This document shows positions 24,001 through 33,000 of a DNA stretch of 62,451 nucleotides, one piece after another (within the stretch, counting starts at the first letter, position 1; each line of letters starts with the position of its first letter). The position numbers were made by a program. Source of the stretch: an uncultured Gammaproteobacteria bacterium (GTDB lineage: Bacteria > Patescibacteriota > Patescibacteriia > UBA11705 > JABHMO01); NCBI GenBank assembly GCA_964434235.1, contig CAYSUN010000002.1, positions 24,761 through 87,211 on the forward strand, in the 5' to 3' direction.

Positions 24001-27000
24001 TACTGTAAATCGTTCAACTTTTGTTCATAAAGATGCCCGAGATCAATATGAGATGAGAACTCATAAGCGTTTAATCGATATTTTAAATCCTAGTGCGAAA
24101 ACTATTGATTCTTTGATGAATTTAAACTTACCTGCAGGTGTGGATATTGAGATCAAAATGTAAGTAAAATTAGCTAAAAATTTAAATAGCTAAGTAGACA
24201 CTTGACAAAGTCTTAAATATCTATTAAAATTCTTACTGAAATGAGCTAATTTTGGCTTTCAATTTTATTTGCTGTGCTTTGGTAACCACTTTGATAGTGA
24301 AGTGCCTCAGAACAAAAAAATAAATTTAAGGGTAGATGTTATTGAATATTATTATTTATCTAATTTAATCGACTTAAGATATATCCGGTAAAACAAAAGG
24401 GCCGGGCCTTAGTCCGTCCCTTTTGTTTTATAAAAATGCAATTATATTATGAAATGTATTATTGGAAAAAAAATAGAAATGACACAAAAATTTACCGAAG
24501 ACGGTAATGCTGTACCTGTTACAATTGTAACAGTTGGTCCTTGTGTTATTTTAGATAAAAAAGAATATTCTGAACATAAATCAATTCAGATTGCATTTGA
24601 TTTAGTCGATTCAAAGAAAGTAAATAAGCCTTTAAGAGGTTTCTTCAAGAAAGTTCTTGGAAAAGATGAAAATTATAGAACTGTGAAGGAATTTAAAATG
24701 AGTAAAAATGATGTAATGTTTGATAAATTAGAGAGTGGGCAAGTATTAAACGCTAGTATATTCAATGTTGGAGATATTTTAAGTGTACAAGGAAGATCAA
24801 AAGGAAAGGGGTTCCAAGGTGTTGTTAAAAGACACGGATTTAAAGGGTCTCCTGCTTCTCATGGACATAAGGATCAATTAAGAATGCCTGGTTCTGCTGG
24901 TGCTACTGGACCTGCTCATGTGTTTAAGGGAACTAGAATGGGTGGACATATGGGTGATGAAATGGCAACTATTAAAAAATTAGAAATTATTGATATTGAC
25001 TTAGAAAATAATGAAATTTGGATTAAGGGAGCGGTTCCTGGTCATAAAGATAGTTTGCTTTTTATTATGGCTGAAGGTGATTTTGAAATTCCTAAGATTG
25101 AAGAAGAAAAAGTCAATATGCCGGTAGTTGAGGCTGAATCTGAAAACAAAGAAGAAGTAAAAAATGAAGAAATCGTAGAATCTTCTGTTACTAAGGTTTC
25201 GGAAAATGAAAATGAGGTTAAAAAAGTTAATGAAGAAGAAAATAAGCAAGAAAAAAAGGAAGAAGCAAAAGAATAAATAATTTTTGTTATTTTGCTTTTT
25301 GTTTTTATATATGATTAAAGCTAAATTATTAAATCAAAACGGTGAAGAAAAAGGTGAAGTTACATTAAATTCAGATATTTTTGAAGTTGCAATAAAAAAA
25401 GGATTGGTTCACCAAGCGTTGCAAGCTTTTATTTCTAACAAAAGACAGATTATTGCAGATACAAAAGATAAAAGTGAAGTTAGAGGTGGAGGAAAAAAAC
25501 CTTGGCGTCAAAAAGGTACTGGAAGAGCAAGACATGGTTCAAGTAGATCACCGATTTGGAAGGGTGGAGGTGTAACTTTTGGGCCAACTTCTGAAAGAAA
25601 TTTTACTAAATCGTTAAATAAGAAAATGAGGAACAAAGCTATTTTTATGGTTTTATCAGATAAAGCAAAAAATAGTTTAGTTAATGTAGTTGAAGAGTTC
25701 CAATTAGCAGAAATCAAAACAAAGTCTATTGCTGATTTTCAAAAGAAAACAAAATTAAATAAGGTATTAATTGTAATAGAAAAGATGGACAAAAATATTG
25801 CATTGTCGGCTAATAATTTACCGAAAGTTAATGTTATTGCTGCTGATAGTGTTAATATTTATGAACTTTTAAAGTTTAATAACGTAATGTTCACAAAAGG
25901 AGCATTAACAAAATTTGAGAAAGTCTATCTAATAAAAGAAACAAAATAGAAAGAAGTTAAATAAATATGAGTGGTTTACTAAATAAAATATTCAAATCTG
26001 ATGAGGAAAAAGAGGTTGATGCAAAAAAAAGCAACAACAAGTCTTCTGATCCAACAGCTGAAGTGAAATCTCCTGCTGAGTTTAAGAGTGGGTCAATTAC
26101 AAAACAAAGTGAACCGAAAATTGTTGAAGTAAAAGAAGTAAAACAAGAAAAAGCAGTGGTCAAGAGAGTTAAGGTTCAAAAAAAGGATGATCCAGAAATA
26201 TACAAAATTCTTATCGAACCATTAATAACTGAAAAGGCAACAGATTTAATGCAATTAAATAAATATTGTTTTATAGTTCCAGTTTCAACTAATAAATCAG
26301 AAGTTGTGAAAAAAGTAATGAATTTATATGGAGTAAAGCCCGTAAAAGTAAATTTTATTAGAAAGAAAGGTAAAAGGGTAAGATATGGAAGAAGGTTTGG
26401 TAAAACAAAAGATTTTAAAAAAGCAATTATTACTTTGCATCCTGAAGACAAAATTGAAGTTTACGAAGGAGTATAAATATAAATTAATATGTCAATAAAA
26501 GTTTATAAACCGATTTCAAATGCAAGACGAAAGATGAGTATCATCGATTCTTCTGGTTATAGTAAGAAAAAACCAGAGAAAAAATTATTAAAAGCATTAA
26601 AGAAATCTGGTGGAAGAAATAATTCTGGAAAAATAACTGTAAGACATCACGGTGGTGGTGCTAAACGTTTTTATCGACTTGTTGATTTTAAGAGAAATAA
26701 GTTTGATATTCCTGCAACTGTAACAGCCTTAGAATATGATCCAAGTCGTTCCGCCAAAATTGCTTTATTAAAATATAAAGATGGTGAAAAAAGATATATT
26801 ATTGCTCCAGCAAATTTAAAAGTTTCTGATATCGTTTTGTCTTCTCAGGCGAAGGTAGAAGTTAAGGTTGGAAATGCAACAAGATTAGAATTTATTCCAA
26901 TTGGTACATTAGTTTCTTGTGTAGAACTACAACCAGGTAAAGGTGCTGAAATGGTTAGAAGTGCTGGTTCTTGGAGTAAGCTTATGGCAGTTGAAGGAAA

Positions 27001-30000: not shown

Positions 30001-33000
30001 AATTCTAAGATCAGCTGATAATTCTGGTGCCAAAAGATTAATGTGCATCAAGGTTATGAATGGTTATAAAAAGCGTTATGCCAGAGTTGGTGATATGGTA
30101 ACTGTGTCAGTGAAAGAAGCAAAACCACATAGCATGGTGAAGAAGGGTGAAGTTTTGCATGCTGTAGTCGTTAGAACAAAAAAAGAGAAAAGAAGACCTG
30201 ATGGATCTTATATTAGATTTAGTGACAATGCGGTTGTTATTATAGATAAAACATCAAAAGAACCAAAAGGTACTCGTATTTTTGGTCCGATTGCTAGGGA
30301 AGTAAGGAAAAGAGGTTTTAGTAAAATAATTTCATTAGCTCCAGAAGTTTTATAAATATATGAAAATAAGAAAAGGTGACAAAGTTCAAATCTTGAAAGG
30401 TAAGGACAGAGTCAAAAAAACTAAAAAAGGTGAAAAGAAAGAAAAAGGTAATCAAGGCAAGGTTGTCCAAGTTATACCTGAAAAAAACAAAGTGGTTGTT
30501 GATGGCCTTAATTTAAGATATAAACATGTTAGACCTAAAAAGGAAGGTGAAAAAGGTCAAAGAATTCAGTTTCCTGCCGCTATCAATATTGCCAATGTTA
30601 TGTTGGTTTGCCCTAAGTGTAATAAATCAACAAGAATTGGTTATAAATTACTTGATTCAGACGTAAAGGGAAGAAAAAAAATTAGAATTTGTAAAAAATG
30701 TTCAGAATCTATTGACTAAAAATATTATTAATATGAATAATTTAAAACAACAATACCAGAAGACTGTGGTGAAGGCTTTACGAGAAAAGTTTAACTACAA
30801 GAATATTATGGCTGTTCCAACTTTGGAAAAAGTAGTCTTAAATGTGGGGCTTGGGGCTGGTCTAAAGGACAAAGAGTATATTGCTGCTGTAAAGAAAACT
30901 TTAGAAAAAATCAGTGGTCAAAAACCAGTTGAAACTCTTGCTAAAAAATCAATTTCAAATTTTAAGATAAGACAAGGTAATGTTGTTGGTGTTAAGGTAA
31001 CTCTTCGTGGTGAAAGAATGTGGGATTTTATTGAAAAATTGATTAAAGTAACATTACCACGTGTCAGAGATTTTCGAGGAATTTCTAATAAAGCATTTGA
31101 TAAAAATGGAAATTATACATTAGGTTTTAAGGAATACATTTCTTTTCCTGAAATTAATCAAGACGAAGTTGATCGATTCCACGGTTTAGAAGTATGTGTA
31201 AAAACAACAGCTGAAACAGAAAAAGAAGGAAGATCATTACTTAAAGAATTAGGTTTCCCATTAAAGAAAGAGGATAAATAAAAATTATTATAATATGTCA
31301 ACAAAGGCACAATACGTAAAATCACAAAGAACACCAAAATTCTCAAGCCGAACAGTGAGACGTTGCTGGAGATGTGGAAGAGTCCATGGCTACATGAGAA
31401 AATTTGGTTTATGCAGAATTTGTTTTCGAGAATTGGCTGAAAATGGAGAGTTACCTGGTATTACGAGAAGTAGTTGGTAATAACAATAATAAATTATTTC
31501 AATAAATCAATATTTATTTATATTTCAATATGACAATGACAGACCCAATTGCAGACATGTTAACAAGAATAAGAAATGCCTCAATGGTAAAAAAGGCAGA
31601 GCTTTTAATTCCATATTCAAAATTAAAGTTTGCAATTGCTAAAATTTTAGAAAAGGAAAAATACATTATTTCAGCTGAAAAGGTTGATCAAGGTTTTCGA
31701 TTTATTAAAATTTCATTAAAATATGAAGATAATAAACCAGTAATTAGTAAAATCAGCCGAATTAGCCGAGTTGGCCAGAGAATTTATGTAAAGAAAGATG
31801 AATTGCCTAGAGTTTTGAATGGTTATGGTCTAGCAATTGTTTCTACGTCTAAGGGAGTAATGACAAATAGAGAAGCTTCGAAGCTAAATTTAGGTGGTGA
31901 AGTAATTTGCGAGGTTTATTAAATATACTATATGTCTAGAATAGGTAAAAAAACAATCATAATTCCAAGTGGTGTTGATGTAAAAGTCGATGGTAGTTTA
32001 GTTATTGTAAAAGGTCCAAAAGGTGAATTGCAACAAGAAATTCATAAAATAATTACTTTGGAAATTAATGATAATAAAATTGATGTTAAAGTTCCAAACG
32101 AAGAAGCGAATGATCAGAAAGCACTTTGGGGACTTTTTAGAACATTAATAAATAATATGATTGTTGGCGTAACTGAAGGTTTTGAAAAAAAGCTAGAAAT
32201 TAATGGTGTTGGTTATAAAGCTTCTATGAATGGACAAAAATTAGTTTTGAATGTAGGTTATTCTCATCCTGTTGAATTTAATATTCCAGAAGGTATTAAT
32301 TGTAAAGTTGAAGCCAATGTTGTAACTATTGCTGGAAGCAATAAACAACTGGTTGGTGAAGTTGCTGCTAATATTAGAAAAGTCAGAAAGCCAGAACCAT
32401 ATAAAGGAAAAGGGATTAAATATAGTGATGAAATAATTAGACGTAAAGCAGGAAAGGCTGCAGGAAAGGCCGCTGCTTAAACTAAAGTTTTAATTATATG
32501 AAAGATAAAAATAAGATAAAGACAAATAAAATTCAATTACGAAAAAATAGAACAAGAAAAAAGATTGCTGGTGGTTCAACATTACCAAGATTATCTGTAT
32601 TTCGAAGTCTAAAGCATTTTTATACTCAAATTATTGATGATAAAGCTGGAAAAACTGTTTGTTCTGCTTCTGATAAAGAAATTGATAAAAAGGGTAAAAA
32701 ACCGATTGAAATTGCAAAGTTAGTTGGAGAATTAATTGCTCAAAAAGCGTTGGATAATAAAGTTGAGAAAGTTGTTTTTGATAGATCTTCTTACCAATAT
32801 CATGGACGAGTAAAGGCTGCAGCTGAAGGAGCAAGAGAAAAAGGATTAAAATTTTAATTATACTATCTATAAATTCTATATACTATGGCAAAGAAAGAAT
32901 TCAAAAAAAGACCTAAACAAGAACAAGAGTTTGATCAAAAGATTATTGACCTTGCTCGTGTAACTCGTGTGATGGCCGGAGGTAAACGTTTAAGATTCCG

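Follow-up and report, generated by a model that had tools for sequence, protein, structure and literature searches.

The S10/spc cluster and its enlarged proteins

The window analysed here is the whole stretch of 62,451 nucleotides that forms positions 24,761 to 87,211 of contig CAYSUN010000002.1, in the assembly GCA_964434235.1 of an uncultured member of the Patescibacteria, or Candidate Phyla Radiation (CPR). The assembly (G000) comprises 1.13 Mb in 63 contigs. Between 24.4 and 35.3 kb, the forward strand of the window carries the canonical S10/spc cluster of ribosomal protein genes, which continues into secY. We are concerned here with two proteins of this cluster, uL23 and uL22, each of which has a long appendage ending in a conserved amphipathic motif. 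The closest named relatives, found with a uL24 alignment pattern, are Candidatus Falkowbacteria and metagenome-assembled genomes (MAGs) designated 'Patescibacteria group'.

The proteins were compared with those of E. coli K-12, translated from the K-12 record. In the original prediction, made from the DNA sequence, all four proteins around the exit tunnel were said to carry extra segments: an N-terminal extension of about 75 residues on uL23, a C-terminal extension of about 85 residues on uL22, an acidic tail on uL29, and a Lys-rich insertion of 12 residues in uL24. These segments are real. All four genes are on the forward strand. uL23 (25967-26476) has 169 residues, against 100 in E. coli, of which 71 are additional at the N-terminus, beginning MSGLLNKIFK. 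uL22 (27653-28240) has 195 residues against 110, with 85 added at the C-terminus, the end being KGVFKKMFRRKAGM. uL29 (29444-29671) has 75 against 63, the difference being an acidic tail of 12 residues, and uL24 (30360-30719) has 119 against 104, with a 12-residue insert, RVKKTKKGEKKE, after D16 and a further five residues in a Cys4 hairpin. The idea of a pattern common to the four proteins fared less well. Extensions are not exclusive to the exit proteins, because uL3, which is not one of them, has 63 additional residues at its C-terminus; the uL29 tail is peculiar to this genome, and the uL24 insert lies away from the exit loop, as described below. The remaining 11 proteins that were compared differ from E. 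coli by at most 8 residues at both ends.

The uL23 and uL22 appendages

The uL23 gene lies between rplD and rplB, and its product matches PF00276 with 90.4 bits, against a cut-off of 30.8 bits. The original prediction had allowed that the true start might lie downstream. This can be rejected: the first ATG is 17 nucleotides downstream of the rplD stop codon and is preceded by just two open codons, no other ATG occurs until codon 95, within the conserved core, and the N-terminal decapeptide is conserved among relatives. The start is therefore the first ATG. From this point the protein has three parts. Residues 1-11 (25967..25999), MSGLLNKIFKS, are predicted to form a cationic amphipathic helix; residues 12-74 (26000..26188) are a linker rich in Lys, Glu, Val and Ala; and residues 75-169 with the stop codon (26189..26476) are the core, matched by PF00276 over residues 80-164 (E = 1e-25) and equivalent to residues 4-98 of E. 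coli uL23. Glu89 of the core, in the TEK motif, which is the docking residue for trigger factor, is invariant in the alignment of relatives.

The uL22 gene lies between rpsS and rpsC, and its product matches PF00237 with 110.5 bits (cut-off 28 bits) and TIGR01044 with 118.3 bits (cut-off 73.65). Here the order of the parts is reversed. The core comes first (residues 1-110, 27653..27982; PF00237 over residues 5-107, E = 5e-32) and is equivalent to residues 1-110 of E. coli uL22. It is followed by a Lys/Glu-rich linker (residues 111-180, 27983..28192), and by the C-terminal motif DKGVFKKMFRRKAGM (residues 181-195, with the stop codon 28193..28240).

Operons were collected from 30 relatives spanning the range from genus to class, and the conservation of the motifs was read in 28 of them, all Falkowbacteria-like Patescibacteria. 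Nearly all of the uL23 sequences start with M-[SGA]-(G)-[ILVF]-[ILF]-x-K-I-[FL]-K, and nearly all of the uL22 sequences end with K-G-[FILV]-[FL]-K-K-[MVI]-F-[RQN]-R-K-[SA]-G-[MQE], as in KGFLKKMFRRKSG or KGFFKKMFRRKSG. Within the uL22 motif no variation is seen at F189 or R191, and conservation is at least 90% at K182, K187 and K192. In both proteins the end motif is conserved about as much as the folded core, and the linker is not. For uL22 the mean pairwise identity is 0.58 in the core, 0.20 in the linker and 0.61 in the C-terminal motif; for uL23 it is 0.55 in the core, 0.12 in the linker and 0.42 in the N-terminal motif (0.60 by residue class). Among these relatives the linkers are 21-75 residues long in uL23, and 50-86 residues long in uL22. 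As controls, the C-terminal tails of uL3 (10-93 residues) and uS3 (9-46 residues) in the same genomes were inspected, and have no conserved end.

In order-level relatives (L022-L032), a D[VI]R.QGKHRH island is present about 25 residues ahead of the uL22 motif. In the window it has decayed to KNKGRNAQKQ, at about 28130-28170.

Structures were predicted with AlphaFold2 (AF2), using the alignment of relatives. The cores are modelled with confidence, with a predicted local distance difference test score (pLDDT) above 90 for the uL22 core. The uL23 linker has a pLDDT of 40-50 and is predicted to be disordered, and the uL22 linker falls below 50 over residues 132-169. Short helices are modelled at the ends with modest confidence (pLDDT about 60), at residues 6-10 of uL23 and 184-193 of uL22. 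The tails show no packing against the cores.

The linkers contain about 23-26% Lys and 12% Glu, giving a net charge of +4 to +5. The ends carry net charges of +2 (uL23) and +5 to +6 (uL22). The best hydrophobic moment over nine residues is 0.61 for the uL23 end and 0.67 for the uL22 end, against 0.24 and 0.27 in the respective linkers, and is comparable with the values of 0.55-0.68 obtained for the E. coli MinD, SecA and FtsA helices. The terminal stretch exceeds every stretch of the linker in 79% of the uL22 and 71% of the uL23 proteins. Of the checks that accompanied the original prediction, three came out in its favour: conservation of the ends but not of the linkers, the position of the uL23 start, and the loss of ffh and ftsY described below. 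The ends, taken as residues 2-11 of uL23 and 182-195 of uL22, also have the placement typical of a membrane-targeting sequence, being 8-15 residues long, at the extreme terminus, and joined to the rest of the protein by a stretch predicted to be disordered, and they combine an amphipathic pattern with positive charge.

Similarity to membrane-targeting helices

The original prediction had likened these ends to the membrane-targeting helix of MinD. We read the sequences of MinD, MinE, SecA and FtsY from the E. coli K-12 DNA record. MinD ends in EEKKGFLKRLFGG, which includes KKGFLKRLFGG; MinE begins MALLDFFLSRKK, and SecA begins MLIKLLTKVFGS. FtsY begins MAKEKKRGFFSWLGFG and has KEGFFARLKRSLLK at the junction of its A and N domains. 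All of these segments are experimentally established membrane-targeting helices. The likeness to MinD is confirmed on the authentic sequence, KGFLKRLF of MinD being nearly identical to KGFLKKMF of uL22, and it extends to the other three proteins. The FtsY segments KEGFFARLKRSLLK and KKRGFFSWLGFG resemble the uL22 motif (GFFARLKRSL in FtsY, GFFKKMFRRK in uL22). MinE MALLDFFLSRKK and LLTKVFGS of SecA resemble uL23 starts such as MALLDVFKK and MSGLLNKIFK. All are terminal and 8-14 residues long, and the common face is two hydrophobic residues, two of any kind and two more hydrophobic residues, flanked by Lys or Arg. As in uL22 and uL23, a long charged stretch without order lies between the helix of FtsY and its functional domain.

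There are also differences. In MinD, MinE, FtsY and SecA the helix is carried by a soluble factor, whereas in the present case it belongs to a core protein of the ribosome. The A domain of FtsY is acidic, with 30% Glu, whereas the uL22 and uL23 linkers are rich in Lys and Glu and net basic. The uL22 motif is set apart from all four by its invariant F-x-R-K core.

The same resemblance is found within this genome, where the two SecA paralogs begin MSLLKKIFKVKD and MSVLNKLFGD. A search of 3793 open reading frames (ORFs) with the uL23 N-terminal pattern returned only uL23, both SecA paralogs and one spurious ORF. A corresponding search of the ORFs of this genome with the uL22 C-terminal pattern returned uL22 and one unrelated protein. 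The SecA paralogs are encoded at C20:16004-18724 and C44:7725-8969, and both have amphipathic N-termini of the SecA type. One is complete, with 906 residues; the other is an open frame of 414 residues, possibly cut by the end of the contig.

Targeting factors

The SRP (signal recognition particle) and the receptor for it belong to the most conserved of cellular machines. The genome described here has no SRP: Ffh, FtsY and the 4.5S RNA are all absent. The GTPase domain of SRP54, PF00448, which occurs in Ffh and FtsY, has no match in this genome or in the 30 relatives apart from P-loop fragments, and the SRP RNA family RF00169 is found in none of these 31 genomes. A tblastn search of this genome with E. 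coli Ffh and FtsY gave nothing above 29 bits, the FtsY query being the authentic E. coli sequence and the Ffh query one not taken from the K-12 record. Control genomes were positive in all of the SRP searches. The absence extends across the phylum: in a sample of 201 Patescibacteria genomes, many of them a single contig, PF00448 gave one real match, at a contig edge in one genome (G200). As noted in passing elsewhere, many CPR bacteria lack both SRP subunits (PMC8080830). Transcriptome papers on TM7x would suggest an SRP in Saccharibacteria; this was rejected, the SRP genes there being those of the host, Schaalia.

Trigger factor presents a different picture. The gene, tig, was not found in this 63-contig assembly. 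A weak match at C1:32382-32639 proved to belong to a membrane-anchored PpiC/SurA-like protein of 338 residues. However, all four congeners have tig, as do 29 of 31 relatives and 187 of the 201 phylum genomes, and the absence of the gene here is therefore most likely a gap in the assembly. The original prediction had suggested that the tails might compensate for missing targeting factors, and named their co-occurrence with loss of ffh, ftsY and tig as a check. The part concerning SRP holds, since ffh, ftsY and the SRP RNA are missing here and in the relatives, and ffh and ftsY phylum-wide. The part concerning tig does not, because tig is retained in the genomes just listed, and we rejected the idea of tig loss accompanying the tails. 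Many SRP-less families are also without the motifs, as discussed below. In a separate observation, the sampled families with a tig-less genome and uL22/uL23 data (f28, f33, f49, f80, f84, f92) have the uL23 motif in six cases of six, and the uL22 motif in five of six. Any such link is not strict, since tig and the tails occur together in the genomes most closely related to the window.

No alternative ribosome receptor stands out. YidC, at 269 residues, is of the short form and has no long basic tail for binding ribosomes; we therefore rejected the possibility that it compensates by means of a basic tail like that of YidC2/Oxa1. The gene secY (34001..35272, forward strand), whose product would be the translocon for the tethered ribosome proposed below, encodes 423 residues. 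It is an ORF of ordinary length with no odd extension, and SecY was rejected as an unusual component.

Distribution of the motifs across the phylum

The wider distribution was examined using one genome for each of 76 Patescibacteria families. The uL23 N-terminal motif is present in 24 of the 66 families that could be assessed; for the uL22 C-terminal motif the figure is 21 of 71. Both motifs are found in 13 families and neither in 35, with the uL23 motif alone in 10 and the uL22 motif alone in 4. They therefore tend to occur together (odds ratio 11, Fisher p = 2e-4, phylogeny not being corrected for). In families with a motif, the extensions are 23-79 residues long for uL23 and 57-135 for uL22. 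Starts of uL23 from elsewhere in the phylum include MALLDVFKKGKKK, MAILDRFRKK, MGFFDRFRKK, MSLLDKIFKKKK and MALLDVFKK.

Named CPR loci and loci from outside the CPR were gathered with a single uL24 query. Among the former, the uL22 motif occurs in Falkow-, Kuenen-, Moran- and Andersenbacteria and in MAGs of the 'Parcubacteria group'. Saccharibacteria have a variant tail ending G[VL]ARRAF..., and the motif is missing from the uL22 of the WWE3 and Levybacteria loci. In about 35 loci from outside the CPR (Clostridia, Anaerolineae, Planctomycetes and others) uL23 and uL22 have no such appendages, the longest being 17 residues and free of the motif.

Proposed function

On the basis of the conserved ends, which occur twice on neighbouring proteins, their likeness to membrane helices, and the absence of SRP, we hypothesise that the uL23 and uL22 tails are ribosome-borne membrane-targeting sequences, tethering the exit face of the ribosome to the membrane. 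This is advanced tentatively, with a probability that we would place slightly short of even. That the ends bind lipid, act as tethers and serve in targeting is in each case what we infer.

The mechanism would be as follows. uL23 and uL22 flank the exit of the nascent chain, and each would provide a net-basic disordered tether of 60-75 residues with a terminal cationic amphipathic helix, located at the N-terminus of uL23 and at the C-terminus of uL22. The helix would lie with its hydrophobic side buried in the cytoplasmic leaflet and its Lys/Arg side in contact with anionic lipid head groups. A single helix would bind weakly, but each ribosome would have two of them and a polysome many, which could provide avidity. 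As a general polymer estimate, a disordered chain of 60-75 residues has a contour length of about 25 nm and a root-mean-square span of about 7 nm. The exit face could be kept within roughly 10-25 nm of the membrane, and hydrophobic nascent chains could encounter SecYEG/YidC during translation, with no need of SRP or the SRP receptor. Taken further, much of the Patescibacteria may have exchanged the SRP/FtsY cycle for a ribosome that targets itself, using no soluble factor and no GTP-driven receptor cycle. We regard this broader proposal as doubtful. It would make these ribosomes an independent bacterial counterpart of the permanently membrane-tethered mitoribosome.

A number of observations weigh against a membrane tether, and several of them point instead to a site on the ribosome itself. 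Basic tails of ribosomal proteins often bind ribosomal RNA (rRNA), and a permanent tether would also confine to the membrane those ribosomes engaged in the synthesis of cytosolic proteins. The hydrophobic moments of the ends, high as they are relative to the linkers, are ordinary among the termini of this proteome (88th percentile for uL23, 70th for uL22). About two-thirds of the SRP-less Patescibacteria families are without the motifs, and hence a cell can live without SRP and without them, nor are they the sole answer to its loss. The remaining points concern uL22. Given the strict invariance of F189 and R191, and an F-x-R-[KR] core that persists across classes, the motif has the look of a specific docking site rather than of a generic pattern for binding lipid. 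The length of the uL22 linker is also nearly fixed, at 72-76 residues in 21 of the 28 close relatives, and the semi-conserved islands EKVPT, KIETVK and D[VI]R.QGKHRH within it suggest that part of it may lie along the ribosome surface. These are features that would fit fixed contacts. A first rival explanation is that the ends are bound to rRNA or to adjacent ribosomal proteins and lend stability to the reduced ribosome of the CPR, with the structured L22, L29 and S6 extensions of Mycoplasma pneumoniae as a model. The net-basic linkers are in keeping with this. CPR ribosomes lack uL30, and also the surface 23S helices H9, H63, H78 and H98 (PMC9297842); extensions are common on bacterial ribosomal proteins, a number of them adopting an ordered form on the ribosome (PMC9534751). 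However, loss of uL30 and reduction of rRNA are phylum-wide, while the motifs are found in about one-third of families. Half of the uL23 motif consists of bulky hydrophobic residues (L, L, I, F) of the SecA/MinE type, which is unusual for a contact with rRNA, the lengths of the appendages vary widely across the phylum, and the AF2 models, which are of monomers, have no tail packed on a core. We consider internal docking fairly unlikely overall.

The strict F-x-R-K core is equally what would be expected of a short linear motif recognised by a protein, and the second possibility is that the ends bind a partner at the exit, such as SecYEG, YidC, SecA, trigger factor or a factor specific to the CPR. 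The co-occurrence of the two motifs in the same families is compatible with this, as is the near identity of the uL23 N-terminus to those of both SecA paralogs in the same genome. The N-terminal helix of E. coli SecA touches lipid and also the part of the ribosome around uL23, and the uL23 end could be a mimic in cis of the SecA N-terminus, competing for the ribosomal or translocon site of SecA. Against this, no candidate partner emerged, with nothing unusual about YidC or SecY, and the helices that the motifs match are ones for which the lipid bilayer is the established target. A protein partner seems to us a little less likely again than docking on the ribosome. Both are nevertheless serious rivals to the membrane tether, especially for uL22. 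The same cannot be said of the proposal that the extensions are functionless, the neutral low-complexity growth of an AT-rich reduced genome. Tails rich in Lys and Glu are indeed found also on uL3, uS3 and uS5 in the window, but the control tails on uL3 and uS3 have no such ends, and the uL22 and uL23 motifs are conserved like a folded core from the genus out to other classes, while the linkers adjoining them drift. Neutral growth is very improbable.

Relation to other systems

A membrane tether of this kind would have parallels. The mitoribosome is held at the membrane by mL45/Mba1 together with the C-terminal tail of Oxa1. It is a ribosome of bacterial type, working without SRP and held at the membrane by its exit face, and the same is proposed here, by analogy only. 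Its tether is a TIM44-fold protein and an insertase tail, with no homology to the short helices on uL22 and uL23 that would serve here. The loss of SRP in mitochondria has been discussed (PMC8321541).

Within bacteria, the basic C-terminal tail of YidC2/Oxa1 provides an SRP-independent hold on the ribosome at the membrane. Another is provided by YqjD, ElaB and YgaM, which are described as C-tail-anchored proteins that bind the exit region of the ribosome (bioRxiv 10.1101/2024.08.16.608256). In these systems the anchor is part of a membrane protein that takes hold of the ribosome, whereas in the arrangement proposed here it would be the ribosome that extends to the membrane.

Long extensions on ribosomal proteins are in themselves well documented. 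They are widespread, with roles that are mostly unknown, and in M. pneumoniae they are present on 11 of 52 ribosomal proteins, those on L22, L29 and S6 being partly structured (PMC9534751). Enlarged uL22 and uL23 have already been recorded in the CPR, as has an N-terminal region of uL23 in part of the CPR, without a function and with a caveat about start codons (PMC9297842). As on the proteins described here, the M. pneumoniae and CPR extensions are long, terminal and mostly disordered. The difference is that these reports give only length, and propose no conserved amphipathic end, no link to SRP and no role at the membrane. The NCBIfam model for a Mycoplasma 'L22/unknown domain fusion' matches the uL22 of this genome weakly, with 83 bits against a cut-off of 526 bits. 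In the literature that was searched there is no account of conserved terminal amphipathic motifs on uL22 or uL23, of a likeness to MinD, MinE, FtsY or SecA, or of a link to the absence of SRP; nor is there a structure of a CPR ribosome, or a ribosome-borne membrane anchor in the CPR. What is new here is thus the conserved terminal amphipathic motifs on these two proteins, ribosomal protein extensions and amphipathic membrane-targeting sequences both being known as kinds.

The insertion of membrane proteins in Patescibacteria without SRP is barely treated in the same literature, and neither is the absence of SRP throughout the phylum. Helices like those of MinD, MinE, FtsY and SecA, placed on proteins that flank the exit, provide a concrete hypothesis for co-translational targeting independent of SRP. 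The two end peptides are portable and directly testable, and the tails are a structural feature to be sought in CPR cells and ribosomes. If they dock on the ribosome instead, they are still a conserved and undescribed element of CPR ribosome architecture.

Other proteins of the cluster

The acidic tail of uL29 (residues 64-75, 29633..29671, forward strand) lies outside the element described above; each of the 26 relatives examined either lacks it or has a different sequence there. The Lys-rich insert of uL24, RVKKTKKGEKKE (residues 17-28, 30408..30443, forward strand), falls between D18 and K19 of the E. coli protein. It is kept in relatives at the level of family and order, and is missing in several at the level of class. 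The exit-port loop, or finger, of uL24 comprises E. coli residues 43-57 (PMC6298777), and the insert is outside it. It is probably unrelated to the uL22 and uL23 tails. We therefore rejected a common system in which these two segments would be joined with the tails of uL22 and uL23, the uL29 tail being unconserved and the uL24 insert off the exit loop.

The C-terminal hairpin of uL24 has a Cys4 pattern, CPKC...CKKC, in which the four cysteines are invariant in 22 relatives. From its sequence this is likely to be a zinc ribbon. The pattern is not lineage-specific, since it also matched loci from Clostridia, Anaerolineae and other groups outside the CPR.

The additional 63 residues of uL3 form an acidic and Lys-rich C-terminal tail (window 25070-25276). 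Further along the cluster, rpmD, encoding uL30, is missing between rpsE and rplO (window 33463-33469), which is a known hallmark of the CPR/Patescibacteria. Beside this position, uS5 ends in a Lys/Glu-rich C-terminal tail of about 25 residues, and uL15 has 162 residues, compared with 144 in E. coli.

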